From the NCBI GenBank assembly GCA_038056005.1, contig JBBUGS010000050.1, positions 1 through 36,089 of the forward strand: a stretch of DNA of 36,089 nucleotides. Direction: 5' to 3'. The notes below the pieces were generated by a model. The model was not told the DNA's origin. It did not search any database and saw nothing but the letters and a program-made list of their open reading frames with translations. A program made the translations under genes and the position numbers. Below, piece after piece: positions 12,180 to 32,450 of this stretch. The stretch comes from Patescibacteria group bacterium. GTDB taxonomy: Bacteria > Patescibacteriota > Patescibacteriia > UBA9934 > CAMTUG01. Positions within the stretch are counted from its first letter, which is position 1. The number at the start of each line of letters is the position of its first letter.

Positions 12180-12188
12180 AGGGTTTGT

Positions 12189-16058: not shown

Positions 16059-16087
16059 TTGACTCAAGGCCGCTCGGGTTCTAGGAT
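16059..16087 (+). promoter_or_regulatory. putative promoter of GC-rich cassette A, divergent from the alaS promoter
   Basis: TTGACT (16059-16064), a 17-nt spacer, then TAGGAT (16082-16087). GGAG at 16101-16104 and ATG at 16111 follow. Confidence 0.45.
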
Positions 16088-16110
16088 AAAATAAGATCGC
16101 GGAGTTCGTG

Positions 16111-16392
16111 ATGATGGCATTTCATTATCCTGTCGGCGTGACACTCATTTGGGATCTGTCGATGCCTGACGTCGAGCAGGCCCTCCCCTGGCTCCTCGGC
16201 CGCTTCGGAGAAGGGCCGTTCGTGGTCTTCGCTGCTCGCTACGTGTATCGCTGCGTCCTTTGCGCAGCCGAAGGCGAAGAGAGGCACAGTGCCGACTGCC
16301 GCGGAATCGCCGATGGTCGATGGGTGGAACAAGTCGCCGTCCTGGCGACGCCGATTTGGATCGATGCCGAGCGCCTGTGCCTGGCCGTCTAG
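16111..16392 (+). CDS. hypothetical small protein in GC-rich cassette A (93 aa, hydrophobic, 4 Cys, 5 Trp)
   Basis: About 72% GC in a hand-counted 60-nt line. An SD (GGAG) lies 6 nt before the ATG, a promoter lies upstream, and a hairpin plus T-run lies downstream. A codon-for-codon antisense ORF (16081..16425, minus strand, GTG start) is a mutually exclusive alternative. I prefer the plus strand because the minus frame would need Pro CCA x4-5 and Ile ATA x2, which are atypical for GC-rich coding sequence. No family is recognised. Confidence 0.45.
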   Translation: MMAFHYPVGVTLIWDLSMPDVEQALPWLLGRFGEGPFVVFAARYVYRCVLCAAEGEERHSADCRGIADGRWVEQVAVLATPIWIDAERLCLAV

Positions 16393-16412
16393 GCAACTCA
16401 GATCGCGACTGC

Positions 16413-16450
16413 GACCCCGGGGCACTCTCGCTCCGGGTGTCCTGCTTTTT
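16413..16450 (+). terminator. putative intrinsic terminator of cassette A
   Basis: Stem GACCCCGG (16413-16420) pairs with CCGGG(T)GTC (16433-16441) with one bulge. The loop is 12 nt and is followed by CTGCTTTTT. There is no T-run on the minus strand. Confidence 0.45.
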
Positions 16451-18062
16451 AAGCAACCGTTTGATCTTTAGAAATACTTTCTGAGGGCTCAAAGCGTTTA
16501 AATAGTCTCCGCTCCATGGAGGCTATAAAGGCGATCATTTCTGGACTCTTCAAGGCCCAGGCGATCATGCCGTAAACAATGAGGCCCGCTCCGCCGGCCA
16601 CCAAACCTTGGGCAAGAATTCCAAGGAAGGTTTCCAGATGGAAGATACTGGCTGCGACTGGCTTCAAGAGCTGCGTCACAATTCCTCCAGCCATCGCGGC
16701 GATAGAAATAATGAATAGTGATTTGAGAATCTCCCCTTCTTTTAAGGAACCCACACGAAGGCGCAGGGCCATCCAAAGGACGGAGACGTTGACAAGCGCC
16801 GAGAGTGAGAACGAGAGGCCAAGTCCAACCACACCGAATTCCTTGGCAAACAACAGAGCGGCAATCACGTTGAAGAAGGTTGTGAGCAAACCGACAACGA
16901 ATGGGGTGGCTGTATCGCGCCAGGCGTAGAAGCCGCGAGCGAGAAGGAACACTAGACTTTGCGCGAAAAGACTTAAGGTGAAGAATGCCAGCGTGTCAGC
17001 AGTGGTAATGGTTTCTTCCCACCCAAACTTCCCTGCCCCAACGACCACGCGGACGATCTGAGCGCGCAAAAGCAAGAACAGGACTGACGCAGGGATCACA
17101 AAAAATAAAATTTGCCGAGCCGTAGTTGAGAACGTATCGACGAAGCCGTCGACGTCTTTGCGTGCAGCTGCTTCTGATAGTGACGGGAACGCGGCGACGG
17201 CAAACGATACCGCCACGATGCCGATCACAAAAAACTGAATGTTGTAGGCGAACTGATACATGGTGACGCTGCCAGCGACGAGGGTGGTGGCGATCATGAT
17301 CATGGCCACGTTGTTCAACTGGTTGACGGCGACCCCCATGGTGCGCGGGACCATTAACTTGCCCATTTCACGGGTGTCAGCATCGTTTAACTTCCAGCGC
17401 CAGGAGTAACGGTAGCCGGCAGAGCTAATGGCGATGAGTTGAGAAAGCATGTGGAGTCCTGCGCCGAGGACTACACCCCAGGCAAGTCCAGCCGGCCCCA
17501 TCGCTGGGACCAACACTGTGGCCCCAATGATGATGCCAAGGTTGTAGAGAACAGGCGCAAGAGAGTAGACAAGGAAGCGCTTCATTCCTTGCAATGCTGA
17601 TCCAAACACGGCAGACAAGGCGAGAAGGAAATCAGACACAAACATGATCCGCGTGAAGGTGATCACCAAATCCAGCTTCGATTGAGAAAACTTTGGGGCG
17701 ATCAGTTCGGCAATCTGCGGAGTAAGGATGAACAAAACGACCGAAATGATGGCGATGCTTACCGCCGCGATGTTCAAAACGTTGTTGGTGAAATCCCAGG
17801 CTGACTTTTTATTGCCTTGGTAGTGCTTAATGAACAGCGGGATGAAACTTGCGGAGAGGGCACCGACCACCAGCAAGCTAAATAAGAAGTCAGGTACCAG
17901 GAACGCCGCGTAGTAGGCATCGAGCGTATCGCCTGCTCCAAAGCGCCCGGCCAAAATACGATCGCGAATGAAGCCAGCGATGCGCGACAAAAAGGCAAAA
18001 GCCGCAACAATCGTTGCAGCGCTTGCGATGTTTTTGGTTTCTTGATTCAAGAAGCGGATCAT
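16449..18062 (-). CDS. murJ: lipid II flippase MurJ (MviN)
   Basis: AATIVAAFAFLSRIAGFIRDRILAGRFGAGDTLDAYYAAFLVPDFLF is the hallmark MurJ N-terminus. 537 aa and polytopic. Confidence 0.93.
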   Translation of the reverse strand: MIRFLNQETKNIASAATIVAAFAFLSRIAGFIRDRILAGRFGAGDTLDAYYAAFLVPDFLFSLLVVGALSASFIPLFIKHYQGNKKSAWDFTNNVLNIAAVSIAIISVVLFILTPQIAELIAPKFSQSKLDLVITFTRIMFVSDFLLALSAVFGSALQGMKRFLVYSLAPVLYNLGIIIGATVLVPAMGPAGLAWGVVLGAGLHMLSQLIAISSAGYRYSWRWKLNDADTREMGKLMVPRTMGVAVNQLNNVAMIMIATTLVAGSVTMYQFAYNIQFFVIGIVAVSFAVAAFPSLSEAAARKDVDGFVDTFSTTARQILFFVIPASVLFLLLRAQIVRVVVGAGKFGWEETITTADTLAFFTLSLFAQSLVFLLARGFYAWRDTATPFVVGLLTTFFNVIAALLFAKEFGVVGLGLSFSLSALVNVSVLWMALRLRVGSLKEGEILKSLFIISIAAMAGGIVTQLLKPVAASIFHLETFLGILAQGLVAGGAGLIVYGMIAWALKSPEMIAFIASMERRLFKRFEPSESISKDQTVA

Positions 18063-19213
18063 ACCGATTCCTGGCGGCGCTTCATGCTTTTTGCAAGGAC
18101 AAGGAGCGAGATCACAAACAGCACGGCCAGGAATCCGATCAAGAATTTCACGTACGGATTTTCAACGTTGAAGAACGAGATCGATACCGTGGCTGAGTCG
18201 GAGGATTTCTGACCAACGCTGTCGGTGACGGTGAGAGTCACTTGGTAATCGCCAAAGGTGCGGTAGGCATGGTCAAGTTCGGGGCGGTTCGAGGTTACCC
18301 CGTCACCGAAGTCCCATTCGTAGCGATAGCCCTCGCCAACAAAGCCTTTGACGCCGAAGTGATAGGTGTTCCAGCTCTTTTGCTCAAAGGTGAAAATGGC
18401 TTTGGGTGAGATTTGTAAATCAGAAAGGGCTGCGCCATTGCTTGATGGCTCTGCTTCGGCCGCGCTGGTCGTCGTAGCAGTTGATGCGGCAGGCTCAGCG
18501 CTTTGTGTAGTCGTAGGCAAAGAGACTGGTGTGTCTGCTGCCGGGACGGGTTCAGCAACTGTAGCTGGCGGGGGCGGCGCGACACTCAGTGATGGGTCTG
18601 TCGGCGCATAATCACTGGCATCCCCCACACCATCGCCGTCCGTGTCGGTTACGAGAGGATTTAGTCCTGATTGCTCTTCGGTTGAATCGGAAAGGCCGTC
18701 ATTGTCGTCATCACTATCGCAGGCATCGCCCTGGCCATCATCATCGGTATCGGCTTGATTAGTATTGGAATCAGAGACGCAATTATCTGATTCATCAGCA
18801 ACACCGTCGCGATCAGCATCTTTAATCGGGGTAAACAGATTAGAAAGGGCCACGTTATTGCTTGTATCTTGATCGACGGGTTCGGTTCCAAGAATTTCGG
18901 CACGAATATTAAAGCTCGACTCGGGGACAACAAAATCAACGTAGACTTCTTCATCTACTCCGCCAGCACGCACCGAAATTACCTGACTATTCCCGATCGC
19001 TACCATTCCTTGCACAAACGAAACATAACCAGAAACGTCGACATCTCCATAGTTATGAATACGAGCATACAAACGAATGGTATCCCCGGCGACTAGGGTT
19101 TCGGTAGAAAAGGAAATCTCGCTGCCATTTTTAAACCCGAGATCCGCATTTGCGGCAGAAGTGGTAAACGGTACGAGCAGGAACACGGCAAAGGACAAAA
19201 GAGCGATGCGCAT
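18059..19213 (-). CDS. secreted, C-terminally anchored surface protein: CARDB-like domain, thrombospondin type-3-like Ca-binding repeats, Pro/Ala/Thr linker and PKD domain
   Basis: Signal peptide MRIALLSFAVFLLVPFTTSAANA. Repeats DADRDGVADESDNC and DTDDDGQGDACDSDDDNDGLSD. PKD motif YEWDFGDGVTS...YQVTLTVTDSVG. C-terminal TM segment FLIGFLAVLFVISLLVLA. Confidence 0.8.
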   Translation of the reverse strand: MRIALLSFAVFLLVPFTTSAANADLGFKNGSEISFSTETLVAGDTIRLYARIHNYGDVDVSGYVSFVQGMVAIGNSQVISVRAGGVDEEVYVDFVVPESSFNIRAEILGTEPVDQDTSNNVALSNLFTPIKDADRDGVADESDNCVSDSNTNQADTDDDGQGDACDSDDDNDGLSDSTEEQSGLNPLVTDTDGDGVGDASDYAPTDPSLSVAPPPPATVAEPVPAADTPVSLPTTTQSAEPAASTATTTSAAEAEPSSNGAALSDLQISPKAIFTFEQKSWNTYHFGVKGFVGEGYRYEWDFGDGVTSNRPELDHAYRTFGDYQVTLTVTDSVGQKSSDSATVSISFFNVENPYVKFLIGFLAVLFVISLLVLAKSMKRRQESV

Positions 19214-19215
19214 AA

Positions 19216-19923
19216 TTACTTTTTCTTACGATGGCCAAAGGTGTAATGAAAAATATCAGAACGAATGGGGCCGAGGGCGATCATGTGAGCTTCTGCCAAA
19301 GCGTATTTTACTGCGCTTTCAAACCGCCCATCGCGTTCGAAGCGACGAATCGAGACACTGATTGCTACTGAACGCAGAATGCCGAAGGTGCCGATACGCA
19401 TGCCGCGGTTCACGTAGTCCGTGTCTTCGCAGAAGACCACGGTCTCATCAAACCCGTTCAGCTCTTCATGTTTTGTGCGCCGAGCCAAGATGCAGTAACC
19501 GGGCGCGTGGGGGCGGAGTTTGGAGAGAACGCGGTTATACTTATTATAGAAGTTATGAAGAATTTTGTCGCTAAGCTTTTTCGATTGCGGCAAGGAATCA
19601 CAGGTAGCGAAGTCTAAGTTGCGCTTTTCAAATTCATCTTCGGCCAATTTCAGAAAGTTCAGATCACTGAGCTCGACGTCGGCATCGAGAAACAAAAGGA
19701 GATTTCCTGTGGCCACTTTAGCCCCGAGGTTGCGTCCGACGCCAGGCATTCCACCATCAATCACTTTGCACCCAAAGGCTTGGGCAATTTCCCTGGTGCG
19801 GTCGGTCGAATGCGCGTCGGCGACGATCACTTCATGCGGCGCGATACTTTGCCGTTTGATCGACGTCAATAAAATGGGCAAATACTCCTCCTCGTTTTTG
19901 GTTGGAATGACGATTGAGAGCAT
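19216..19923 (-). CDS. glycosyltransferase family 2
   Basis: MLSIVIPTKNEEEYLPILLTSI...VIVADAHSTDRT and LFLDADV (DxD motif). Confidence 0.88.
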   Translation of the reverse strand: MLSIVIPTKNEEEYLPILLTSIKRQSIAPHEVIVADAHSTDRTREIAQAFGCKVIDGGMPGVGRNLGAKVATGNLLLFLDADVELSDLNFLKLAEDEFEKRNLDFATCDSLPQSKKLSDKILHNFYNKYNRVLSKLRPHAPGYCILARRTKHEELNGFDETVVFCEDTDYVNRGMRIGTFGILRSVAISVSIRRFERDGRFESAVKYALAEAHMIALGPIRSDIFHYTFGHRKKK

Positions 19924-19957
19924 AATTCCTGCCTTATGATATCATGCGGGGAAGACT

Positions 19958-21292
19958 ATGTCGAAGCTTTATCGACCGGAAGAAGGGACGGTTTCCGCGC
20001 TGAATGGCGCAGGTGATGGGGTGGTTGAACGCGAAGGAAAGCGACCGGTTTTTGTACCCGACACCTTGCCAGGCGAGCGGATTCAATTTGTTCCTCGGCG
20101 GCGAGTCAAAGCAGCGCTTGAAGCTGATCTTCTTGAGCTGCTCGAGGCTTCGCCAGATCGCGTGAAGCCAATTTGTCCTTATGCTTCTGTTTGTGGCGGC
20201 TGCTCCTGGCAACATGTTGATGGTGCACTTCAGGTGAAGACTAAAGAATTGCTCGTGAACGAAGCGTTTGCTGGCGCCGGGCTTGATCTCACTGTCTCAG
20301 AGTTCATCCCCTGCCCCGAACCATTTTATTATCGCAACCGGATGGACTACGCGTTCGGACGCGATGGTGAGCTGGGGCTTAAAATGTCTGGACGATGGTG
20401 GGAGACACTTGATTTAGAAACGTGTTTTTTACTGTCGAAAGAGGCGCCGGAGATTCTCCGTCGTGTGCGCGAATGGAGCCAGGCAACGGAACTTCCTTTT
20501 TGGGATACGCGCGACCACCAAGGTTTTTTTCGTTACTTAGTCATTCGTGAAGGTAAAAATACTGGCGAGAGGCTGATCATGCTGGTCACTTCGGACCAAG
20601 TCTCTCCCGATGTACTTAAGGAACACAAGAAGTCGCTCGTTGTGCTACTCGACGACCTTGCGACTTCGATTCTTTGGAGCGTCAACGACAAAGTTACCGA
20701 CCTCTCCACCCCAAGCTCGATGGAGGTACTTAAAGGCACCCCCTTCCTGCACGAGTCTGTGAACGAGATCACCTACCGCATTCAGCCCGCCAGCTTTTTT
20801 CAAACGAACACCATCATGGCTGCCAAGCTCCAAGATGTCGTGTTGAATGCTTGCGAAGGAAACAAAGGGCTTGTCATGGACTTATACTGCGGCGCGGGAT
20901 TCTTCTCCCTTCAGCTCGCCAAGCGTGGCGTTGATGTGCTCGGGGTTGAGCTTGATGCCGCAGCGATCGAAGGGGCCAAGGAGAATGCTCGACTGAATAC
21001 CATTAATAATGCCGAGTTCATTGCTTCAAAAGCTGAAGAGTTTGATTGGCTAGATCGTATGCCCGAAATAGTGATTGTCGATCCCCCACGCGCAGGACTT
21101 CATCCCGATGTGATCGCAGCCTTGACCAAAGCCCTTCCGACGCGTATCATCTACGTCTCGTGCAAGTATCAACGCTTAATCGAGGAGCTCCCACACTTTT
21201 TGAAGCACTATTCTGTTAAAAAAGTTTCGGCGCTGGATCTGTTTCCTCAAACTCCGCATGTCGAAGTCGTGGTCGAAATGACCAAATTATGA
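19958..21292 (+). CDS. RumA/TrmA-family SAM-dependent RNA (uracil-5) methyltransferase with TRAM domain and Fe-S Cys cluster
   Basis: CPYASVCGGCSWQH, FFQTN, DLYCGAGFFSL (SAM-binding motif), VIVDPPRAGL and YVSC (catalytic Cys). Confidence 0.88.
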   Translation: MSKLYRPEEGTVSALNGAGDGVVEREGKRPVFVPDTLPGERIQFVPRRRVKAALEADLLELLEASPDRVKPICPYASVCGGCSWQHVDGALQVKTKELLVNEAFAGAGLDLTVSEFIPCPEPFYYRNRMDYAFGRDGELGLKMSGRWWETLDLETCFLLSKEAPEILRRVREWSQATELPFWDTRDHQGFFRYLVIREGKNTGERLIMLVTSDQVSPDVLKEHKKSLVVLLDDLATSILWSVNDKVTDLSTPSSMEVLKGTPFLHESVNEITYRIQPASFFQTNTIMAAKLQDVVLNACEGNKGLVMDLYCGAGFFSLQLAKRGVDVLGVELDAAAIEGAKENARLNTINNAEFIASKAEEFDWLDRMPEIVIVDPPRAGLHPDVIAALTKALPTRIIYVSCKYQRLIEELPHFLKHYSVKKVSALDLFPQTPHVEVVVEMTKL

Positions 21293-22134
21293 AATCTGGA
21301 TTCGTTGCCCTTATTGGCCGCTCAAACGTTGGGAAGTCTACGCTTCTCAATGCTTTAGTTGGTTCAAAAGTGGCTATCACCACTCCAAAAGCGCAAACGA
21401 CACGCCAGCCGGTTCAAGGAATTATTACTGATGACCGTGGTCAAATTGTGTTTGTGGATACACCGGGCGTGATGCAAAAGGCGCGTGATCCACTCACTAA
21501 GCGTCTGAGCCAATTTGTGAAGGAGTCGCTTCGTGGAGTAAACGTGGTGCTCTACGTTGTTGATCCGACTCGTTCGATCGGTAATGAAGAACACGAAGCC
21601 ATGGCCCTTGTGGAGCATTTAAATATTCCGAAATATCTGATCATTAACAAAATTGACGAAGAAATTAAACCGTTTATCGATTCCTACCGCGATTTTGAAA
21701 AACGTTTTACAGGCATGCTCGAAATCTCCGCCTTGCGAGGTCACAACTTGAAAGCGCTCAAAGATTTGTTGTTTGAAATCATGCCTGAAGGCGAGCCGTA
21801 CTATCCTGAATATCAACTTTCGAACATGCCACACGAACTGTGGCTGGCCGAACTTATCCGCGAAAAGTTATTCTTGCGACTGCGCGAAGAAGTTCCCTAC
21901 GCCGTCCACGTTGAAGTCGACGCGGTTGAGGAACGACCGAACGACATGACCTTCATCTCCGCACGGATTCTCACCAATCAACCTCGCTACAAGCGAATGA
22001 TTATTGGCGACAAAGGCCATGGAGTGAAGGAAATTGGTCAATCGGTGCGCAAAGAACTCGAAGGGGTGATGGGCCGAAAAGTGTATCTTGAACTTACGGT
22101 TGAAGAAGATCCGAACTGGGTTGGTCGACTTTAG
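21289..22134 (+). CDS. era: GTPase Era
   Basis: G1 GRSNVGKST, G3 DTPG, G4 NKID, and a C-terminal KH domain (RILTNQPRYKRMIIGDKGHGVKEIG). Confidence 0.95.
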   Translation: MKSGFVALIGRSNVGKSTLLNALVGSKVAITTPKAQTTRQPVQGIITDDRGQIVFVDTPGVMQKARDPLTKRLSQFVKESLRGVNVVLYVVDPTRSIGNEEHEAMALVEHLNIPKYLIINKIDEEIKPFIDSYRDFEKRFTGMLEISALRGHNLKALKDLLFEIMPEGEPYYPEYQLSNMPHELWLAELIREKLFLRLREEVPYAVHVEVDAVEERPNDMTFISARILTNQPRYKRMIIGDKGHGVKEIGQSVRKELEGVMGRKVYLELTVEEDPNWVGRL

Positions 22135-22741
22135 CTTGAAACCAGGCGTAAAAATTTTCGGCAGCACTACCGGCTGGAGTGAATGTGGTGTCCGTGACTT
22201 CGTACGGCGGGACAGTAGAAATGTCGATCGGATTCATGATGACTTGCCCAGACTCATCGGCGATATTCACCCCAACGGGTCCTGAAAGTGGAATCACGGA
22301 AACCCGTTGTTGAAAATCGTAGTGGACTAATGAGAACGTCCCGCCAAAGGTGATTGTTTGGATAGGTCCGGCACTCACCACCAGTGGACGGTCTTTTTGT
22401 GTTCCAGATGAAACAGCAACACGGCCCTTTTGCACCACAATCTCAATTTCCCCCGAAAGCGTTTTGAATTCAACAGTCGTGTCTTCGTACAAAGCGACAA
22501 GTGCATCATCAATCTGGAAGAGCATGCGCGCGTCTTTCCCTGTTGTTACCACCGAGCCTCTCCGCGCTGCTCCATCTGGCGTCGCTACTACATCACCCTG
22601 TTCTTCGAGGGTGGTGATAGCAAAGGTGGGCATGTATCCGTTGCCACCAGCCCAAGTAAATCCAAAATGAGCGCCGAGGACCAAGGTGATCACCAAGACC
22701 GCGAACAGACCGACGCCAAGATGTTTGAGTGTGAAGCGCAT
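22094..22741 (-). CDS. membrane-anchored FecR-domain-like hypothetical protein
   Basis: N-terminal TM segment GVGLFAVLVITLVLGA. VVTTGKDARMLFQIDDALVALYEDTTVEFK resembles the FecR beta-rich domain. The 3' end overlaps the era 3' end by 41 nt (convergent). Confidence 0.6.
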   Translation of the reverse strand: MRFTLKHLGVGLFAVLVITLVLGAHFGFTWAGGNGYMPTFAITTLEEQGDVVATPDGAARRGSVVTTGKDARMLFQIDDALVALYEDTTVEFKTLSGEIEIVVQKGRVAVSSGTQKDRPLVVSAGPIQTITFGGTFSLVHYDFQQRVSVIPLSGPVGVNIADESGQVIMNPIDISTVPPYEVTDTTFTPAGSAAENFYAWFQAKVDQPSSDLLQP

Positions 22742-22753
22742 ATCTGCTAAAAT
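22725..22753 (+). promoter_or_regulatory. putative promoter of the thioredoxin-like gene
   Basis: TTGAGT (22725-22730), a 17-nt spacer, then TAAAAT (22748-22753) preceded by TGc (extended -10). Confidence 0.4.
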
Positions 22754-22779
22754 CCTATCAAGAAAATTTACATTGATCT

Positions 22780-24404: not shown

Positions 24405-24406
24405 AG

Positions 24407-24922: not shown

Positions 24923-24925
24923 AAG

Positions 24926-25893: not shown

Positions 25894-25937
25894 ACTTATT
25901 TGAGTATCTTCCGCGCCTTCTCGAGGACAGAAAGAAT

Positions 25938-26228
25938 TTAGGCCTTCATTTGCCTCTCGCTTTCAAACGGTACAAAGTCGCTCACGCGGTCACCTACTTC
26001 AACCTGTAACTCTTGTTCGTAGAGATCACCGCTCCAGTCAAGAACATGCACTTCGAATGTTTGATTCCAGGAAATGATGCAAGGCGCGGCCGCTTGCTCG
26101 GCGTTCTGTACTGACCCGACGTAGATGCCTGGTTGAAGACCCTCTGGCTGAACAGCTAAATTAGCCGTGGGAACGCCGTAAAGCTTGCCTTTTCCCTCAC
26201 CGTGAATGACCTTTCCTGTGATGCGCAT
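25938..26228 (-). CDS. monofunctional riboflavin kinase (RibF C-terminal-domain type), short
   Basis: ITGKVIHGEGKGKLYGVPTANL...GIYVG...EVHVLDWSGDLYEQELQVEV matches the riboflavin kinase signature. No FAD-synthetase domain is attached. Confidence 0.78.
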   Translation of the reverse strand: MRITGKVIHGEGKGKLYGVPTANLAVQPEGLQPGIYVGSVQNAEQAAAPCIISWNQTFEVHVLDWSGDLYEQELQVEVGDRVSDFVPFESERQMKA

Positions 26229-26237
26229 AGTAGGGTT

Positions 26238-26266
26238 ATGTTAGGGCTGAAAGGGCCACCTGTCAA
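26238..26266 (-). promoter_or_regulatory. putative near-leaderless promoter of the riboflavin operon
   Basis: Minus strand: TTGACA (26266-26261), a 17-nt spacer, then TAACAT (26243-26238). Then 9 nt (aaccctact) precede the ATG at 26228. Confidence 0.5.
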
Positions 26267-26272
26267 CGCGCC

Positions 26273-26301
26273 TTGCAAAGAGGGGGTTGTGGTGGTAAAT
26301 T
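26273..26301 (+). promoter_or_regulatory. putative promoter of the carrier-protein gene, divergent from the rib promoter
   Basis: TTGCAA (26273-26278), a 17-nt spacer, then TAAATT (26296-26301). SD AGGTG at 26309-26313 and ATG at 26319. Confidence 0.5.
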
Positions 26302-26318
26302 CTCGCTCGAGGTGAATA

Positions 26319-26582
26319 ATGGTTAACCGCAAGGCTATCAAGCAAGACCTTCTCCGATTTCTTTCCGACGCGTCGCGTGGGGCAATAGCGATCACGGAGG
26401 AGAACAAGTACACACCCTTTTGTGATCTCGGGGCTGACAGCATCATGCTCTACGACATGTGCTTCAGCATCGAGCGGCGGTATGAAATCCAGTTCGAGCC
26501 CAACGAATTTCACAGCATACGAGAGGGTTCATTCAGTGCCCTTCAGCTACTCGTGGAACTTAAAGTCGATGCACACCCGTGA
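26319..26582 (+). CDS. acyl/peptidyl carrier protein-like (phosphopantetheine attachment motif)
   Basis: 87 aa. DLGADSIMLYDM matches the (D)LGxDS(L/I) Ser attachment motif at the usual position in a four-helix carrier protein. Confidence 0.7.
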   Translation: MVNRKAIKQDLLRFLSDASRGAIAITEENKYTPFCDLGADSIMLYDMCFSIERRYEIQFEPNEFHSIREGSFSALQLLVELKVDAHP

Positions 26583-26613
26583 CTTCTCCAAGCCCGTGAC
26601 TTCTCCAAGCCCG
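26576..26613. repeat. 17-bp perfect tandem duplication (2.2 copies) spanning the carrier-protein stop codon
   Basis: CCCGTGACTTCTCCAAG occurs at 26576-26592 and again at 26593-26609, followed by a partial CCCG. Confidence 0.9.
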
Positions 26614-26650
26614 CGCCCACACAGTGGCGCGGTGCTGTCGTTTACATCGC

Positions 26651-26679
26651 TTGTGCCAGCAGGTTCTACAAGCTAGAAT
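26651..26679 (+). promoter_or_regulatory. putative near-leaderless promoter of the alpha/beta hydrolase gene
   Basis: TTGTGC (26651-26656), a 17-nt spacer, then TAGAAT (26674-26679). Then 9 nt (gtcctcact) precede the ATG at 26689. Confidence 0.45.
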
Positions 26680-26688
26680 GTCCTCACT

Positions 26689-27576
26689 ATGCTTAATGGT
26701 TCACTGGTAAAAACAACCACATCGGATGGTTTAGAGCTAGCAGGATTTTGGATGGACCAAAAATCCGATCTGGCAGTGTTTCATTCTCACGGTACAGCTG
26801 GAGATTTTTATACGCACCAATTTATTGAAGATGAAGGCAAGCGGCTCGCTGAAATGGGTATCTCATTTTTGACAGCCAACAATCGCGGCCACGATGTTTA
26901 CGCTGATATTCGAAAATTCGAGAACGGATCCGTCAGCTGGGCGCATGTCGGCGGCGGTTTTGAGCGTTTTGAAGATTGCATTTTTGATATCAGTGCGTGG
27001 CTGGATTTCCTGAGCGCTCAAGGCGTGAAGCGTGTCGTTCTTCAAGCACATAGCCTAACCCAAAAGATTTTGTACTATCAACATCTCAAGCATGATCCTC
27101 GGGTGGTCGGCCAAATCCATCTGTCGCCGTGCAACGATGCCGGCTTTATGCTCCATCTTCTCGGCGAGCAGAAGTACGGGGAGACAAACAAAATGGTAGC
27201 GAAGCTTGTGGCCGAAGGAAAAACTTCTGAGCTGTTACCGAAGGAGCTCGCCGTTGTCTGCCCGATGGGTCCTTTGCCTTACTTGGGTTATTTAACAGAA
27301 GAGGGTATGGGCAATCTTTTCCCTTATCACAAAGCAGACTCAACGAAGTGGTCTATGCTAGCCGGGACAACGGATCCCCTTCTCGCTATTTTTGGCGGCG
27401 CTGATGGATTTATTAAGCCATCAATCGATGAAGCGGCCAAGCTCTTTCGTGACCACGCAACATCTTCAGCAACTACATCGGTAGAAGTTATTCCCAATGC
27501 CCCACATAGTTATGTCGGTTATGAAAATAATCTTACATCAATAATTTCAACATGGCTCTCTCTCCTTCAAAACTAA
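26689..27576 (+). CDS. alpha/beta-fold hydrolase (DUF1749-like)
   Basis: 295 aa. VFHSHGTAGDF and LQAHSLTQ (a nucleophile-elbow-like xHSxx) with a late His (PNAPHSY). The assignment is at fold level. Confidence 0.7.
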   Translation: MLNGSLVKTTTSDGLELAGFWMDQKSDLAVFHSHGTAGDFYTHQFIEDEGKRLAEMGISFLTANNRGHDVYADIRKFENGSVSWAHVGGGFERFEDCIFDISAWLDFLSAQGVKRVVLQAHSLTQKILYYQHLKHDPRVVGQIHLSPCNDAGFMLHLLGEQKYGETNKMVAKLVAEGKTSELLPKELAVVCPMGPLPYLGYLTEEGMGNLFPYHKADSTKWSMLAGTTDPLLAIFGGADGFIKPSIDEAAKLFRDHATSSATTSVEVIPNAPHSYVGYENNLTSIISTWLSLLQN

Positions 27577-28958
27577 CGAAACCATTCCCTGAGCCGATCC
27601 CGCTCAAAAAGTTGATTGGACCAAGTTTTATTATTTTGGCTCTAGGACTCGGATCTGGCGAAGTTATTTTGTGGCCGTACCTTGCCTCTAACTACGGCTT
27701 GGGAATTGCTTGGGGCGCGTTGCTTGGCATTTCGTTTCAATATTTCATCAACATGGAGATCGAGCGCTACGCTTTGGTGAAAGGCGAAAGCGTATTTGTG
27801 GGGATTGCTAAGATTTTTCGCGTGGCGCCTTATTGGTTTATCGCTTCCACGTTTATTGGCTTCGGACTGCCGGGAATTATTGCTGCCTCGGCGGTGGTGG
27901 TTGCCTCCGTGATTGGTGTTGAGTACGTCAGTCTTGTCGGCATTGCGCTGTTGCTTGTGATCGGATGCATTTTGAGTTCTGGGAAAACTGTCTACGGACT
28001 CATGGAAAAGCTCACTAAGACGATTCTGCTCGTCGGCGTTCCGTGTATATTTATCTTAGCGCTCACTGTGGCTACCTCGATGGATTGGAGTGCTCTCGCA
28101 AGCGGAGTCATCGGCCACGGTGAAGGTTATCGATTCTTGCCCGAGGGAATTGTTTTGGCAGCCTTTTTGGCTGCGTTTGCCTATTCCGGTGCCGGAGGAA
28201 ACTTGAACCTCACTCAATCTATTTATGTAAAGGAAAAAGGGTATGGGATGGGCAAGTATGCTGAGCGGGTCTCAGGCCTCTTTCGTGAAGGGGGTGTGGC
28301 TGAAGCCGTGCATCTTGAAGGTGTGGAGTTTGTCGACAACCCCGAAAACCGTCGACGTTTTAAGATTTGGTGGCGACGCATTTCCACAGAACATGCCCTT
28401 GTCTTTTGGTTTATTGGCGCCTTGTCGATCCTCTTGCTCATGCTACTTTCTTATGCGACGACGTACGGAGTAACCGACAACGCCGAAGGAATTAGTTTTG
28501 TTTTGCATGAAGGAGCTGCCATTGGGGCGCACATCACCCCTGTCCTCGGTTCACTTTTCTTGGTGATTGTGGGCATCATGCTTTTTCAAACACAACTCGG
28601 TGTGATGGACTCAACGTCGCGGATTATGGCCGAGAATGCAGCGATTGCTTACATGAAAAAGAAGGCGGTGCGCACGGTGCCACTTTCAAAAATCTACTTT
28701 GGGTTTTTGTGGGCGCAAATTGCCTTCGGGATTTTGCTTTTTGCGATTGGGGTAACTGAACCGAAGTCGCTGCTTATTCTCGGTGCGTGCATTAACGCCT
28801 TTGCGATGTTTGTCCACGTCGGCCTGGTGGCCATTCTCAATTGGAAAGCGCTGCCGAAGTTTTATCAACCACCGCTCTGGCGGCGTATCCTCCTCGGTTT
28901 AATATTCGTCTTTTTTGGATTCTTTAGTGTCGTGGTTATTTATAGCCAGTTGTTCTAA
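27552..28958 (+). CDS. Nramp-superfamily-like polytopic transporter lacking the canonical DPGN/MPH metal-site motifs
   Basis: 468 aa with about 11 TM segments. The N-terminal GPSFIILALGLGSGEVILWPYLASNYG parallels Nramp TM1 but has GSGE in place of DPGN. The start overlaps the hydrolase 3' end by 25 nt. Confidence 0.6.
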   Translation: MALSPSKLTKPFPEPIPLKKLIGPSFIILALGLGSGEVILWPYLASNYGLGIAWGALLGISFQYFINMEIERYALVKGESVFVGIAKIFRVAPYWFIASTFIGFGLPGIIAASAVVVASVIGVEYVSLVGIALLLVIGCILSSGKTVYGLMEKLTKTILLVGVPCIFILALTVATSMDWSALASGVIGHGEGYRFLPEGIVLAAFLAAFAYSGAGGNLNLTQSIYVKEKGYGMGKYAERVSGLFREGGVAEAVHLEGVEFVDNPENRRRFKIWWRRISTEHALVFWFIGALSILLLMLLSYATTYGVTDNAEGISFVLHEGAAIGAHITPVLGSLFLVIVGIMLFQTQLGVMDSTSRIMAENAAIAYMKKKAVRTVPLSKIYFGFLWAQIAFGILLFAIGVTEPKSLLILGACINAFAMFVHVGLVAILNWKALPKFYQPPLWRRILLGLIFVFFGFFSVVVIYSQLF

Positions 28959-28979
28959 GCAAGTTGCTTTCCCTGCAAA

Positions 28980-29011
28980 GAAAAAAGATCATCGCAAAGA
29001 TGATCTTTTTT
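28980..29011. terminator. bidirectional rho-independent terminator
   Basis: AAAAAAA-GATCATC-GCAAA-GATGATC-TTTTTT. It serves the plus-strand transporter gene and the minus-strand tRNA-Gln. Confidence 0.8.
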
Positions 29012-29012
29012 C

Positions 29013-29086
29013 TGGCTCCGGGACGTGGATTCGAACCACGGTTAACGGATTCAGAGTCCGTTGTCCTGCCGCTAGACGATCCCGGA
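29013..29086 (-). tRNA. tRNA-Gln (anticodon CUG), CCA encoded
   Basis: Hand-folded cloverleaf. Acceptor stem TCCGGGA/TCCCGGA. D stem GTCT/GGAC. Anticodon stem ACGGA/TCCGT with loop CTCTGAA. T stem CGTGG/CCACG with loop TTCGAAT. Discriminator G followed by CCA. Total 74 nt. Confidence 0.95.
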
Positions 29087-29103
29087 ATGACTTTGTGTCA
29101 GCG

Positions 29104-29132
29104 AGACTATCATTATTTATGCCGTCGGTCAA
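29104..29132 (-). promoter_or_regulatory. putative promoter of tRNA-Gln
   Basis: Minus strand: TTGACC (29132-29127), a 17-nt spacer, then TAGTCT (29109-29104). It lies 17 nt upstream of the tRNA 5' end. Confidence 0.5.
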
Positions 29133-29215
29133 CGCGGCTATTGGTGGTTAAAATGTCGTCGACCCCGTCGCAAGAGTCGACGAGGTCGTGTGAGAGCGGC
29201 GCGGAGAAGCGTCGC

Positions 29216-29614
29216 CTAGCTGGTATTGCCGCAACGGAGCTTGACGAGCTTGGGGGTTGGGACGATGACGGTGGTTCCGGCCTCGTAAGCGATGAGCCCC
29301 TCGGCCAAAAGCTCCGCGACCTCGCCATCAAACACGCGACGAAGTTCATCGAAGTCGACCCCTTCGGTCCGCTCACCGTGGGCCACGATGACGTCCTGCT
29401 CGAGATCCCCGTAGAGGGCATCCACTTCCACCCCAAACCAGTGGCCATGGCTCTCCGCCCTTTCCTGGGAGAAGCGGAGGAGACGGTTGGCGGTGCCGTC
29501 CCGGGTCGTCTCAGTGCTCCGGACCGGGATGGGCCCGAGCTCGTTCGGACGAAGCTTTTCGACCCACAGACGACCACAGATGAAGAGCTCAGGAACGGTG
29601 TCGGTCACGGGCAT
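29216..29614 (-). CDS. hypothetical acidic protein in GC-rich cassette B (132 aa)
   Basis: ATG preceded by AGGAG with a 5-nt spacer. A hand count of 29281-29340 gives 63% GC, with a per-codon-position pattern of 80/35/75%. Codon choice looks like genuine high-GC coding: Ile ATC 5 of 5, Thr ACC 9 of 11, Lys AAG 3 of 3, Glu GAG 13 vs GAA 5, and no ATA/TTA/CTA. The mirror plus-strand ORF (ATG 29153..29671) would be dominated by Gly GGT and contain GTA, so it is less likely. No family is recognised. Confidence 0.55.
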   Translation of the reverse strand: MPVTDTVPELFICGRLWVEKLRPNELGPIPVRSTETTRDGTANRLLRFSQERAESHGHWFGVEVDALYGDLEQDVIVAHGERTEGVDFDELRRVFDGEVAELLAEGLIAYEAGTTVIVPTPKLVKLRCGNTS

Positions 29615-29638
29615 GGAGGCTCCTGGGGGTTCGCCCTG

Positions 29639-29668
29639 AAACTAACATGGTTCGACTTGGGCGGTCAA
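29639..29668 (-). promoter_or_regulatory. putative promoter of cassette B
   Basis: Minus strand: TTGACC (29668-29663), an 18-nt spacer ending in TGT (extended -10), then TAGTTT (29644-29639). Confidence 0.4.
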
Positions 29669-29705
29669 TAGAAAAACGACCGCGCGAGGCGGCCGCTTTT
29701 CTATT
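29667..29705 (-). terminator. rho-independent terminator of the 29721..30500 gene
   Basis: AATAGAAAA (29667-29675) pairs with TTTTCTATT (29697-29705). They enclose a GC-rich inner stem (CGACCGC...GCGGCCG). The minus strand shows the stem followed by TTTTTCTATT. Confidence 0.7.
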
Positions 29706-29720
29706 CGTTTGATTTCTCTT

Positions 29721-30500
29721 TTACTCAACGTTCTCATCCGCATCAACGATCAAGTGAACTTCGGTGACATCGGTGAACGAGACTCCGTTATCGTCGACCA
29801 CAACGGTGCCCTTAAAGTGCACTTTGGATCCAACGCTCAAATCTGATTCACTGGCTTGACCGTCTTTTCCAAAGTAGAAGACGGTATTGTCGCTGTAATT
29901 CACTGTTGCTGAAGCAGCTTCGTGATCCTTGAAAGGCTTGAGCTCAACCGTAAAGGTATTTGCTTCGGTATCAACGGCTGAAACTTCAGCTCCGGCGCGA
30001 TGATGCTTTCCCTTGCTCAAATCCGTATTGATCAACTTAGCAGTGACTGTTCCATCAGCTGACAAACTGCCGAAGATACGAACGCGCAAGCCAGTCGTCA
30101 AATCTGCCGTCGTCCCCTCTTCACCATCCACCATGACTTTGGTGGAAGCGTTAACCGCCACCGTGATGCTCGATCCAACTTCAGGAAGGACTGGAGGAGT
30201 CAATTTACCCTTAAATTCTCCACCAGGAACACGCCCCTTGAGTTCATCGTATGAGACACCTATTGGAACGACTCTATCTTCATGCTTTTGGTCGCGTGGC
30301 GGAACGTCAACAACCGTTAATGTGAGACTACCTACCCCTTCATTGTCTAGCGAGACAGAAGTGATGTCAGCGATAATCCCTGGACCACGGCGAACATGCT
30401 CATCGTGCTGACCGTCGTTCCCCTGGGCAGAGGCAATCGGGGCAAGGGTGCTGAAACCGAGAGCAAGAGCTCCAACCGCAGCGAGGTACTTGATATTCAT
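29721..30500 (-). CDS. secreted repeat protein (DUF5666-like beta-rich domains)
   Basis: Signal peptide MNIKYLAAVGALALGFSTLAPIASAQG. Repeated G(S/T)xV(x)V...G segments such as VRIFGSLSADGTVTA and VHFKGTVVVDDNGVSF. The family call is tentative. Confidence 0.65.
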   Translation of the reverse strand: MNIKYLAAVGALALGFSTLAPIASAQGNDGQHDEHVRRGPGIIADITSVSLDNEGVGSLTLTVVDVPPRDQKHEDRVVPIGVSYDELKGRVPGGEFKGKLTPPVLPEVGSSITVAVNASTKVMVDGEEGTTADLTTGLRVRIFGSLSADGTVTAKLINTDLSKGKHHRAGAEVSAVDTEANTFTVELKPFKDHEAASATVNYSDNTVFYFGKDGQASESDLSVGSKVHFKGTVVVDDNGVSFTDVTEVHLIVDADENVE

Positions 30501-30632
30501 AGCGTTAATTATTTACGAATTATTTTCTGGACGCATACCCATACACCCGCCGCTCCCATTTCGTCACAAGCCGATTGGTTACGAGGCTACACCAAAATCG
30601 GCCTCAGGTTACCAGGAGAGGTTTCGCCAATC

Positions 30633-30665
30633 AAAAACCGCCCGTCGTTTTATAACGATGAGCGG
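30633..30665 (-). terminator. putative terminator of the 30675..31178 gene
   Basis: Minus strand: CCGCTCATCGTT-ATAA-AACGACGGGCGG, an imperfect 12-bp stem with 2 mismatches, followed by TTTTTG. Confidence 0.55.
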
Positions 30666-30674
30666 CTTCTGAAA

Positions 30675-31178
30675 TTACTTAACCGCGACGACGTTGATAT
30701 ATCCGAGTGTTTGACCTTGGTCGTAGAGGCTAATCTCGTACGCACCCAGCGTGTCGGCATCAAATTCATAGGTTCCTTGGACGCCGGCTTTGAGCGCAAG
30801 ATTTTGGGTGTGGCCTTGAAGCTCTAACGTGTCAGACTTCGATGACGTCACCCGCATCACCACATGTTTGCCTTGTGGCACTTCGTAGGTTTCAGGATTG
30901 AAGGCAGCGCCTTGAGTGTAATTAATAGTGATGTAAAAGGCTGGCTCGTCTTCGTCTGTTGCTGTTGAGGTGACGCTGTTGGTTGAGGTCTCCGGCTTGG
31001 ATGTGGTATTCGTCTTCGTTGATGAGTTCGCTGAGTTCGGCAGTGTGGAGTTTGCGTAGTTTACTGTGTCAGATACCCCATCACGTTCTGGCGTTGGCGT
31101 GCGATGCTCAGCCCAGATGCCAAGTAGTACGGCGAGGACAAAAAGGACCACGACTGGCCCCAGAGATCGTTTATCCAT
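30675..31178 (-). CDS. N-terminally anchored, Ser/Thr-rich-linker protein with a cupredoxin-like C-terminal domain and no Cys ligand
   Basis: TM segment GPVVVLFVLAVLLGIW and an STN-rich linker. YEVPQGKHVVMRVTSSKSDTLELQGH...GTYEFDADTLGAYEI resembles the cupredoxin/EfeO-type fold. No Cys is present, so a type-1 Cu site is unlikely. Confidence 0.55.
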   Translation of the reverse strand: MDKRSLGPVVVLFVLAVLLGIWAEHRTPTPERDGVSDTVNYANSTLPNSANSSTKTNTTSKPETSTNSVTSTATDEDEPAFYITINYTQGAAFNPETYEVPQGKHVVMRVTSSKSDTLELQGHTQNLALKAGVQGTYEFDADTLGAYEISLYDQGQTLGYINVVAVK

Positions 31179-31211
31179 AGAAATGCGTTAGGACTTATTC
31201 CTTAAACACGG

Positions 31212-31240
31212 TTGACAGTCACCTCTGAACACTTTACAAC
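31212..31240 (+). promoter_or_regulatory. putative promoter of the GC-rich DnaN-like cassette
   Basis: TTGACA (31212-31217), a 17-nt spacer, then TACAAC (31235-31240, a weak -10). SD GAGG at 31248-31251 and ATG at 31259. Confidence 0.4.
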
Positions 31241-31258
31241 AGGTGCAGAGGAAAAACC

Positions 31259-32401
31259 ATGACGTCCTCGCCGACTTCTCTGACTTCTTTCCCTTTCGAC
31301 GTCGCAGCCCGCATGGCCGAGCGCATCACCCTCCAAGGACGCAACGCTCACCACCCCGTGGGGTTCATTCATGAGGCTGGCAAGCTGATCCTCCGGGTAA
31401 GGGTGGGATGCCCGTGGGACCACCTCGCGCTCCGCACCGATGTGCCGTTGGAGGATCAGGCGGCCGTCCACGTCGACACCCGAGCCCTTGCACAGGCAGT
31501 GCGTGCCTATGGTCGGAAGCTCGAGGTCACCCAGACCCTGGGGGGAGAGATCTCACTCTGCGGAAAGCATGGAAGTGTCCTGCTCCGTCGCTGCCGTGAG
31601 CAACCGGGCCTGTTTCCGTTCGCCGATTCGCTGGAAGGGCCCGCGTTCACCATTACGAAGGCCGATGCGGTTGCCGCTCTCGCCGCCAGTGATGCCGTAT
31701 TGCTCAAACGAGATCACAACGTCGGGATGTGGTTCGACCGGGGGCCTGGAGCCGATCAGTTCTACACGCTAAGCACGGACGGATGGCGCCTGCAGCGGCA
31801 CGCCGTGCCCTACGAAGGGCAGTACTGGATCCCTGCCAGGGTCACGTTCTCGGCCCAGACTGTTCGCTGGCTTCTGTGGATTTTGCGTCAGACCCCCGCG
31901 ACAGAGATCAGTTTCACTCGGGTGGACGAATGGCGTTGCCGAATCGACGCTGGACCACTCACCGCGATGATCTGTCTCGTACAGCAGGCCACCCCTGATC
32001 ACCGCGAAGTCATCCGTGAAGCACTCACAGCGGACCGACGCGGCATGCTCGTAGACCGCGTGGAGCTGCGCCACACACTGAGCCGCGTGAAGAGGTTGCT
32101 TCCTCCGCCGCATCACGACATCAAGCTGCGGTTCGAAGAGAACAGACTCGCCATTCTCTTCACGAATGGTCGGTGTGACCTCGAAGGCGCGATCGAGATC
32201 AAAGGATCGGGGTGGAACGGCGAACCCCAAATCGTCGGCTACAACACCCGCGCCCTCCTTGACGCTTGCCGTACCGGCCCCAAGGAGACCGAGATCTACC
32301 TCTCGCCCGGCAAGGCCCTGAAGGACGCAGGTGTCGCCTACGGACCCAAGGCCGGCCCCGACCGTTTCCTTGCCCTTTTCATGCCACTCAACATCCCCTA
32401 A
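31259..32401 (+). CDS. divergent DNA polymerase III beta sliding-clamp (DnaN-fold)-like protein, GC-rich, orphan
   Basis: 380 aa, which is clamp-sized. Blocks are collinear with E. coli DnaN as I recall it: TDGWRLQRHAVP vs TDGHRLAVCSMP; PDHREVI vs PDYRRVLP; IKLRFEENRLAILFTN vs VRLYVSENQLKITANN; VGYNTRALLDACR vs IGFNVSYVLDVLN; C-terminal FLALFMPLNIP vs AYVVMPMRL. Two hand-counted 60-nt lines gave 67-68% GC. Confidence 0.8.
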   Translation: MTSSPTSLTSFPFDVAARMAERITLQGRNAHHPVGFIHEAGKLILRVRVGCPWDHLALRTDVPLEDQAAVHVDTRALAQAVRAYGRKLEVTQTLGGEISLCGKHGSVLLRRCREQPGLFPFADSLEGPAFTITKADAVAALAASDAVLLKRDHNVGMWFDRGPGADQFYTLSTDGWRLQRHAVPYEGQYWIPARVTFSAQTVRWLLWILRQTPATEISFTRVDEWRCRIDAGPLTAMICLVQQATPDHREVIREALTADRRGMLVDRVELRHTLSRVKRLLPPPHHDIKLRFEENRLAILFTNGRCDLEGAIEIKGSGWNGEPQIVGYNTRALLDACRTGPKETEIYLSPGKALKDAGVAYGPKAGPDRFLALFMPLNIP

Positions 32402-32415
32402 GCGCTTTTCCACTC

Positions 32416-32450
32416 GGCCTCCTTTCTCGGAGGCCTTCGACGTTTTATTG
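32416..32450 (+). terminator. rho-independent terminator of the DnaN-like cassette
   Basis: GGCCTCC (32416-32422), loop TTTCTC, GGAGGCC (32429-32435), followed by TTCGACGTTTTATTGTTT. Confidence 0.65.

Follow-up and report, generated by a model that had tools for sequence, protein, structure and literature searches.

The stretch analysed here, in the following called the window, is the whole of a 36,089-nt contig (JBBUGS010000050.1) from a metagenome-assembled genome (MAG) of a Patescibacteria group bacterium sampled in well H41 of the Hainich aquifer (NCBI proteins MEK7105630-49). The window is ordinary core genome. Its genes run from a priA-like gene through def, fmt, cell-envelope glycosyltransferases, ribosomal proteins and rpoA, infA, alaS and murJ, and continue with a PKD protein, a trmA-like gene, era, a beta-CASP RNase, riboflavin genes, an ABC transporter and dnaX. 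Three open reading frames (ORFs) among them are much richer in G+C (GC) than their surroundings: gene 1 between alaS and murJ, gene 2 beside the gene for tRNA-Gln, and gene 3, encoding a predicted beta sliding clamp of the DnaN type, beside the ABC transporter genes (Table 1). These three ORFs are probably compositionally foreign, single-gene accessory islets, separately gained by horizontal transfer at two hot spots of gene turnover.

Sharp steps in GC content can also be produced by misjoined assemblies, and an earlier, sequence-only reading of the window had proposed a check for chimeric assembly. All six junctions between the ORFs and their flanks were reproduced, at 99.6-100% identity, in ten further contigs obtained from different samples and with different assemblers (three ENA assemblies from replicate samples, two Logan assemblies and a second NCBI MAG), and no misjoin was found. 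Islets of like kind are, moreover, present in relatives. Because ten independently assembled contigs span every junction, the islets are not an assembly artefact, and chimeric assembly or contamination during binning retains next to no probability.

Table 1. Positions of the three GC-rich genes, their signals and associated features in the window.
Feature	Position	Strand	Remarks
Promoter of alaS	16051-16023	-	TTGAAA-17-TAGAGT; back-to-back with the gene 1 promoter
Gene 1 promoter-like site	16059..16087	+	TTGACT-17-TAGGAT; passes the consensus scan
Gene 1 Shine-Dalgarno site	16101..16104	+	GGAG, 6 nt before the ATG; read from the sequence
Gene 1, 93-aa ORFan	16111..16392	+	MEK7105631.1, hypothetical protein; no lysine; four cysteines including a CxxC
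Gene 1 intrinsic-terminator-like hairpin and T run	16418..16454	+	scan-positive (16418-16444); convergent with the murJ stop (16449)
Variable region	26229..32444		from the riboflavin-kinase-like gene to the ABC transporter; content differs in L003 and L004
tRNA-Gln(CTG) with its own promoter	29013..29132	-	TTGACC-17-TAGTCT at 29132-29104; kept in L003 and L004
Two G+C hairpins 3' of gene 2	29148..29217	-	GGCGACGC...GCGCCGC and CGTCGAC...GTCGACG, then ACATTTT
Gene 2, 132-aa acidic ORFan	29216..29614	-	MEK7105646.1; GC 63.2%, GC at third codon positions (GC3) 0.77
Gene 2 promoter-like site	29639..29668	-	TTGACC-18-TAGTTT; AGGAG Shine-Dalgarno site at 29620-29624
Gene 3 promoter-like site	31212..31251	+	TTGACA-17-TACAAC; GAGG Shine-Dalgarno site at 31248-31251
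Gene 3, 380-aa DnaN-type beta sliding clamp (predicted)	31259..32401	+	GC 62.6%, GC3 0.73
Hairpin 3' of gene 3	32416..32449	+	GGCCTCC-TTTCTC-GGAGGCC, then TTCGACGTTTTATT; uncalled by the terminator scan
dnaX (clamp-loader tau/gamma), 3' part	35016-36083	-	runs off the window end; 2.6 kb from gene 3

Base composition and codon use

The sequence-only reading had picked out the three ORFs as GC-rich against their surroundings, and computation confirmed both their coordinates and the excess. Composition statistics were drawn from the window only, setting the three ORFs against its 40 other genes. The GC contents of genes 1 to 3 are 62.4%, 63.2% and 62.6%, some 12 points above the surroundings: the window averages 51.1%, and its other genes 50.5% (standard deviation, sd, 2.2; range 45.7-53.9). 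The earlier hand count of 63% for gene 2 was thus right, but those of 72% for gene 1 and 67-68% for gene 3 were too high, values of 70-75% being reached only in single stretches of 40-60 nt. Background GC3 is 0.54 (sd 0.043, range 0.45-0.64, maximum 0.643). Relative to this background, the three ORFs have z-scores of 5.4-5.8 for GC and 4.0-5.4 for GC3, and no segment of the same size elsewhere in the contig equals them (maxima 59.9%, 58.4% and 55.2% GC). The codon periodicity described earlier was also borne out, GC at the first, second and third positions being 0.70/0.46/0.71 in gene 1, 0.69/0.43/0.77 in gene 2 and 0.67/0.48/0.73 in gene 3 (ranges 0.67-0.70, 0.43-0.48 and 0.71-0.77). The excess is confined to the ORFs: the background level is regained within 20-40 nt of their ends, and the promoter regions are background-like.

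The encoded proteins and the codons in use are shifted as well. The proportion of lysine among lysine and arginine residues, K/(K+R), is 0, 0.21 and 0.25 in the cassette proteins versus 0.52 +/- 0.10 in native genes. Favoured codons of the cassettes are GAG (0.60), CAG (0.76) and AAG (0.87). In native genes of high expression (ribosomal proteins, rpoA, infA), the preference is for GAA and CAA, and AAA is about as frequent as AAG. Because lysine is replaced by arginine and the use of GAG, CAG and AAG is opposite to native codon selection, the proteins appear to have evolved under GC-biased mutation. Native translational selection as the cause of the high GC3 was rejected on the same two grounds, the purine-ending codons and the amino-acid make-up.

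A different possibility is that the three genes are long-held residents in which high GC is actively maintained, either by selection on mRNA or protein or by a bias of the locus, e.g., GC-biased gene conversion where recombination is frequent (hot spots). C-ending codons are indeed favoured by native highly expressed genes too, and the codon shifts of these genes and of the cassettes correlate at 0.40. However, the purine-ending codons go the opposite way and the amino-acid make-up is shifted, relatives lack counterparts of genes 1 and 3, and GC drops to background within 20-40 nt of the ORF boundaries, at which conversion tracts would not be expected to stop. We consider such maintenance distinctly unlikely as the explanation for the three genes, although GC-rich gene families in other lineages, described below, speak for it.

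Transcription signals

The signals around the ORFs suggest that each unit would be autonomous, consisting of a sigma-70-type promoter, a leader of 18-24 nt with a Shine-Dalgarno site, the ORF and a hairpin, i.e., the layout of a phage moron. The sequence-only reading had assigned a promoter to every ORF and hairpins behind each, and this held to different degrees. At the level of consensus, gene 1 is a full independent transcription unit, with a scan-positive promoter; genes 2 and 3 have a weaker -10 hexamer or T tract. The promoter of gene 2 fits the native TAGNNT type (see below) and directly follows the terminator hairpin (29667-29705) of the upstream DUF5666 gene. That of gene 3 is weak: its -10 hexamer, TACAAC, lacks the final T and remains under the threshold of the consensus scan. 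Hairpins are present behind all three ORFs, but the T tracts of genes 2 and 3 are poorer. The two hairpins 3' of gene 2 form a weak terminator, below the call of the terminator scan, and the hairpin of gene 3 sits between this gene and the convergent ABC ATPase gene (stop at 32445). The ORFs had been described as monocistronic. For genes 1 and 3 such a layout follows from the geometry, as each points away from the gene on one side and towards the gene on the other; gene 2 is co-directional with its neighbours, but has the above terminator hairpin in front of its promoter.

Native promoters of like build had been reported for four loci; we verified those of alaS, tRNA-Gln and infA, and found none for the rib genes. 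The motif TTGA-N18-20-TAGNNT occurs 8 times in the window versus 2.2 expected, a number that none of 100 shuffles reached, while its TATNNT version, with 3 occurrences versus 2.2 expected, is not enriched. The -10 hexamer of this organism thus appears to be TAGNNT rather than TATAAT, and alaS promoters of relatives are also of the TAG type (TAGAAT in L083, TAGTAT in L163). Across the six GC-rich units examined (the three in the window and one each in L004, R1 and L091, introduced below), the layout is shared: TTGAC(A/C/T), a spacer of 17-18 nt and TA(G/C)nn(T/C), then a leader of 18-24 nt with a Shine-Dalgarno site and an ATG.

The islands were also considered as genes for structured RNAs, and this was rejected. 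In the window, Rfam matched only tRNA-Gln, and the transcripts of genes 1 and 2 fold like shuffled sequences (z -0.96 and +0.46).

Gene 1 and the spacer between murJ and alaS

Gene 1 is an ORFan. It matched nothing in Pfam, PHROGs, PADLOC, NCBIfam, PDB, phages or IMG/VR (a 17-residue IMG/VR match was dismissed as chance), its cluster at 90% identity contains itself alone, and no homologue was found in relatives. Like gene 2, it encodes a small soluble protein; comparison of these two proteins with PDB by single sequence or by two-sequence profile gave nothing.

The gene order around gene 1, PKD-murJ-alaS-infA, is conserved in the related contigs L084, L086, L087, L093, L152, L158 and L163. The spacer between murJ and alaS measures ~35-70 nt in L087 and L158 and less than 200 nt in L084, compared to 435 nt in the window, where gene 1 fills it. 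The nearest relative, R1 (GCA_038078795.1), is a single species represented by contigs L083, L164 and L163 at 98% nucleotide identity; its alaS is 76% identical to that of the window. DNA homology between the window and R1 ends at ~16053, just before the gene 1 promoter, and resumes at ~16461 in murJ. In this spacer R1 carries the gene for a 327-aa secreted M15 D-Ala-D-Ala dipeptidase (L083 1-860, L164 1-1549, L163 10001-12000), which is GC-rich in its turn (GC 0.66, GC3 0.88, backbone 0.52), divergent from alaS, and equipped with its own promoter (TTGACT-18-TAGTTT). We rejected the idea that gene 1 is a remnant of this M15 gene from the same site, as no similarity between the two was found. 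In L085 another GC-rich ORF abuts alaS, and in its relative L087 (81-87% identical) the site is empty. Genes 1 and 3 are accessory, since both are absent from all syntenic relatives and the murJ|alaS site is empty in L087, L158 and L084.

Three further observations concern L163 and GC-rich ORFs near alaS in other contigs. L163 has a coverage of only ~3x and shows 33-61 indels relative to other contigs of the same species at 98% identity, so that its genes are frameshifted; its M15 protein appears only 54% identical because of these frameshifts, which calls for caution in protein comparisons with low-coverage assemblies. In L091, a Patescibacteria-like genome of 44.7% GC, a 255-aa ORF with GC3 0.89 lies near alaS (678-1445, minus strand). 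In L089/L090, four consecutive ORFs for small membrane proteins, with GC3 0.75-0.95, come directly after alaS (8006-9651, minus strand).

Gene 2 and the tRNA-Gln region

Genes 2 and 3 lie in a region whose content varies between relatives. Its flanks (dnaX, the ABC transporter genes, riboflavin genes and the beta-CASP RNase) are syntenic in L003 and L004; within it, only tRNA-Gln and, in L003, a homologue of gene 2 are common with these relatives. L004, a Parcubacteria MAG of 51% GC, has a single gene with a CYTH domain immediately 3' of tRNA-Gln (11724-12248, minus strand; GC 0.64, GC3 0.87), with its own promoter (TTGACA-17-TAGGTT) and an AGGAGG, and followed by a NUDIX-like gene.

Among 5.8 billion clusters, gene 2 found only itself or variants with 99-100% identity, and it had no match in Pfam, PHROGs, PADLOC, NCBIfam, the phage collection or IMG/VR. 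A winged-helix C-terminus, suspected from the motif LLxEGLI...G..IV.PT, received no support from any test. The only homologue is a 118-aa ORF in L003, placed directly upstream of and co-directional with tRNA-Gln, as in the window (BLASTP 32% identity over 84 aa, pairwise E-value 8e-7). The Smith-Waterman score of the pair is 68, compared to a mean of 25.9 (sd 4.3, maximum 53) for 5000 shuffles, and this ORF is by far the best-scoring of its region against gene 2. Since the homologue stands at the same place by tRNA-Gln, gene 2 is likely older than genes 1 and 3 and not a private recent insertion. The sequence-only reading had taken all three ORFs for foreign genes, domesticated individually. 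The composition, together with the accessory status of genes 1 and 3, largely bears out a foreign origin; for gene 2, recent individual domestication is not supported.

L003 (CAZPQJ010000003.1) is titled "uncultured Gammaproteobacteria bacterium", yet ~20 kb of it are syntenic with the window at 50-78% protein identity, and it is probably mislabelled. We also note that a second strain, L174 (GCA_964357265.1), is identical to the window through gene 2 and its neighbours, then holds 14 clustered, mostly synonymous differences at window positions 27611-27656, and diverges completely to the left of position 27600, resembling a recombination breakpoint in the 5' end of a 468-aa gene.

Gene 3 encodes a divergent sliding clamp

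NCBI annotates gene 3 as a protein of 362 aa (MEK7105649.1), and other gene callers predict 380 aa. The start at 31259 is the better one, because it has a GAGG Shine-Dalgarno site and because the longer protein covers the first beta strand of DnaN in the alignment. When 5.8 billion clusters were searched by word index, nothing but gene 3 itself or variants at 99-100% identity was returned. An exhaustive phmmer search of 1.84 billion representatives found 19 other proteins, with E-values of 2e-9 to 9e-4 and ~23-40% identity. Ten of these matches were scanned with Pfam and are canonical three-domain DnaNs, co-linear with gene 3 residues ~45-380, and such canonical DnaNs match at E-values of 1e-6 to 1e-3 with ~28% identity; one match is a multi-domain protein of 2886 aa. 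The names of the best matches, unnamed metagenome proteins and one Anaeromyxobacteraceae DnaN at ~28% identity, gave no taxonomic signal. In PDB, the clamps 5wce and 6izo match at an E-value of 1.3e-5, and sequence similarity to DnaN is full-length. Gene 3 stays below the curated Pfam thresholds for DnaN (PF00712, PF02767, PF02768): only the C-terminal PF02768 was seen, at 19.5 bits versus a cut-off of 27, with the N-terminal and central domains undetected, and no DnaN model of NCBIfam matches.

AlphaFold2 with an alignment of 17 sequences gave a model with a predicted local distance difference test (pLDDT) score of 76 and a predicted template-modelling (TM) score of 0.78; this alignment was built from DnaNs, and the single-sequence prediction was uninformative (pLDDT 34). 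The model has three clamp-fold domains in one chain. Compared to PDB with Foldseek, it matches solved beta clamps at an E-value of 1e-24 and TM scores of 0.78-0.82 over ~390 columns, and phage clamps at 0.75-0.81. The motifs TDGWRL, TPDH, GYN..LLD and the C-terminal FMPLNIP are kept, and the invariant columns of the alignment (T173, R177, P246, M375, P376) fall in these motifs. We take TDGWRL, TPDH and FMPLNIP to be the counterparts of TDGHRL, FPDY and the C-terminal MPMRL, which line the partner-binding pocket of the E. coli beta clamp. The predicted structure and the similarity indicate that gene 3 encodes a complete, extremely divergent DnaN beta clamp, which is probably functional. It is among the most divergent complete DnaN homologues that can be found by sequence. 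The clamp is predicted to be loaded on DNA and to bind clamp-binding proteins, as an accessory or competing clamp.

The sequence-only reading had raised the possibility of joint action by the three products, as a system of a clamp-like protein and two small partners. They have in common an odd composition (62.4-63.2% GC) and the layout of their units, and a clamp-loader gene, dnaX, is found at a distance of 2.6 kb from gene 3. However, the genes occupy three separate sites, with 13 kb between genes 1 and 2, and have their own promoters; L003 keeps a homologue of gene 2 with no homologue of gene 1 or of the clamp in the locus; and the same sites in relatives hold unrelated cargo (the M15 peptidase, the CYTH protein). 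No PADLOC defence model matches. As for dnaX, its proximity to gene 3 is taken as coincidental, because dnaX is native and conserved in place in syntenic relatives that have no clamp there. A functional triad is therefore very improbable.

Origin of the three genes

Of the marks by which islets are recognized, a composition and codon use unlike those of the host were found in all three genes, and a patchy distribution in genes 1 and 3, gene 2 with its L003 homologue being the exception; signatures of mobility were absent. As the sequence-only reading had claimed, no integrase or transposase is encoded by any ORF of the window, and there is no tRNA-derived or flanking att-like repeat. A search for shared cassette ends or an attC-like element likewise gave no sequence and no imperfect inverted repeat common to the cassettes of the window or to those of relatives, and the candidate of an att repeat derived from the tRNA was dropped. 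An exact 8-bp direct repeat (AGATCGCG, at 16094-16101 and 16400-16407) brackets the Shine-Dalgarno site and ORF of gene 1, and may reflect microhomology at insertion or chance. The genes would have been gained at two hot spots, one in the spacer between murJ and alaS and the other around tRNA-Gln, from the riboflavin genes to the ABC transporter. No dedicated integrase would have been involved; the probable route is recombination, either illegitimate or guided by the flanks.

The three units could also be the remnants of phages or plasmids, as moron-type cargo left after the decay of an element or brought by transduction. The arrangement promoter-ORF-terminator together with an odd composition is what defines morons (PMC3594210). 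The tRNA gene adjoining one of the hot spots would fit such an origin, as would the ORFan status, typical for phage genes, and the similarity of the gene 3 model to the clamps that are common in phage genomes. However, the window has no phage or plasmid gene, and its flanks are core genes syntenic in relatives. Neither 50,697 phage records nor IMG/VR nor PHROGs provided a match, and att repeats are missing. Mobile elements are, besides, usually AT-richer and not GC-richer than their hosts. We regard this origin as unlikely.

A transfer of single genes from a GC-rich pool is our preferred reading, and its source is predicted to be an unsampled pool of about 63% GC or more, most likely within Patescibacteria or their mobile elements. 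Such an intra-phylum or mobile-element pool is the most economical source, because the cargo of relatives shares the promoter build, because high-GC members of the group live in the aquifer, and because transfers within the phylum have been published. High-GC relatives with the same short AlaRS are L156 (58-60% GC, alaS GC3 0.77), from the same aquifer, and L138 (64% GC). In groundwater Patescibacteria, hundreds of individually transferred genes were described, including replication and repair genes and exchanged mostly within the phylum (Gios et al. 2025, mSystems, PMC12455944).

Direct transfer from a high-GC host, such as an actinobacterium carrying an episymbiotic Patescibacterium, had been named as an obvious candidate by the sequence-only reading. 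The high GC and GC3 and the arginine-rich, lysine-poor proteins do resemble actinobacterial genes, and uptake of host DNA is plausible for such symbionts. Yet collections that heavily sample Actinobacteria contain no homologue above ~30% identity, the best clamp matches being the metagenome proteins and the Anaeromyxobacteraceae DnaN mentioned above, and the promoters follow the TAGNNT build of the recipient. A recent transfer from Actinobacteria or another well-sampled group is thus unsupported, given that clear homologues are missing, and we judge a host donor quite improbable.

Persistence of high GC and points against transfer

Several results weigh against the gain of the three genes by horizontal transfer. 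Among ~15 billion proteins, no donor and no closer homologue of any of the three was found, and none near enough for a gene tree; neither the 5.8 billion clusters nor the 1.84 billion representatives contain a homologue above ~30% identity, and searches of phage (50,697 records), plasmid-free viral and PDB collections likewise returned none. Because of this, transfer is deduced only from composition and distribution. At the cassettes, neither a target duplication nor an integrase nor a repeat indicative of the mechanism was found. The relatives compared are distant, with 60-78% amino-acid identity in core genes, so that the gains cannot be dated.

The remaining points concern the persistence of high GC. 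The gene 2 homologue of L003 is still GC-rich (0.577, GC3 0.73, in a backbone of 0.497) at only 32% identity, which places this family 8-12 GC points above two different backbones. The M15 dipeptidase of R1 has homologues with 57-58% identity in L177, L178 and L179, contigs with backbones of 0.38 and 0.48, and the M15 family lies 15-17 GC points above three backbones (0.38, 0.48, 0.52). A PaaX-like (PaaX_M-like) gene linked to M15 in both R1 and L179 (29% identity, E-value 1e-13) has backbone GC. Such persistence is not predicted by one old transfer followed by neutral amelioration. It would be expected from repeated exchange with a GC-rich pool, or equally from gene-specific maintenance of GC; a gene 2 family GC-rich in two lineages, and an M15 family GC-rich in backbones of 38%, 48% and 52% beside a conserved neighbour of normal GC, speak for such maintenance.

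A bolder and, in our view, improbable extension of transfer is that the clade keeps a circulating pool of promoter-equipped, GC-rich single-gene cassettes, which enter fixed intergenic hot spots (murJ|alaS and the flank of tRNA-Gln) without an integrase and are GC-rich whatever the backbone. If this is true, either the cassettes arrive by very rapid exchange from a GC-rich partner that is unsampled and might be the host, or an unrecognized process maintains their composition. With the host as partner, the cassettes could help to identify it. The cargo might then consist of factors of symbiosis or conflict: the orphan clamp, its binding pocket intact, as a decoy of the replisome, the secreted cell-wall dipeptidase, and the CYTH enzyme.

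Comparison with known systems

The units of the window fit best among horizontally acquired single-gene islets, which have been described before in the phylum. They do not represent a system of a new kind; horizontal transfer of single genes into Patescibacteria has been documented earlier. The closest precedent is the transfer described in groundwater members (PMC12455944), which is alike in phylum, type of habitat, and the single genes involved, including those of replication and repair. There, transfer was recognized by similarity between co-assembled MAGs; here, it is suggested by composition and by empty or replaced sites, with no partner sequence.

Phage morons, which are independent transcription units spread by horizontal transfer (PMC3594210), resemble our units in having one gene with its own promoter and terminator, between unrelated genes, and of odd base composition. 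However, morons lie inside phages or prophages, whereas the units of the window stand among core genes (alaS, murJ, tRNA-Gln, the ABC transporter) with nothing phage-like near. Integron gene cassettes are also single-gene units of varied, often unassigned function and varied composition. In contrast to these, our units show neither intI nor a shared attC-like 3' element nor a tandem arrangement, and each has its own promoter, while integron cassettes are usually promoterless. Genomic islands linked to tRNA genes share the atypical GC, the accessory content and the adjacency to a tRNA gene (gene 2, and the CYTH gene of L004), but our units have no integrase or tRNA-derived direct repeats and measure 0.4-1.2 kb versus 10-200 kb.

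Accessory DnaN clamps include the clamps of phages and griR, an extra copy of dnaN that provides self-resistance in producers of griselimycin. Gene 3 is likewise of a second type, non-syntenic, with a three-domain fold (predicted) and the pocket motifs kept. The known extra clamps are clearly related to host or phage clamps, whereas gene 3 has at most 30% identity to anything, escapes two of the three Pfam domain models, and stands in no context of polymerase or resistance genes.

The genomes of Patescibacteria are very small and exposed to pressure towards gene loss. The foreign genes that they keep, and the places where they keep them, inform on their life with hosts. In the window and its relatives, accessory genes seem to enter a small number of tolerated gaps in the core genome, each as a self-contained transcription unit, and relatives reuse these gaps with other cargo. 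We consider this reuse of hot spots, together with the persistence of high GC across lineages, the most noteworthy part of the finding.

Additional observations

Two native genes of the window have a -10 hexamer that ends 9 nt before the ATG: alaS (TAGAGT, promoter at 16023-16051, minus strand) and the hydrolase gene at 26689 (TAGAAT, 26651-26679, plus strand). Because of this short distance and because there is no Shine-Dalgarno site, the mRNAs of both genes look leaderless.

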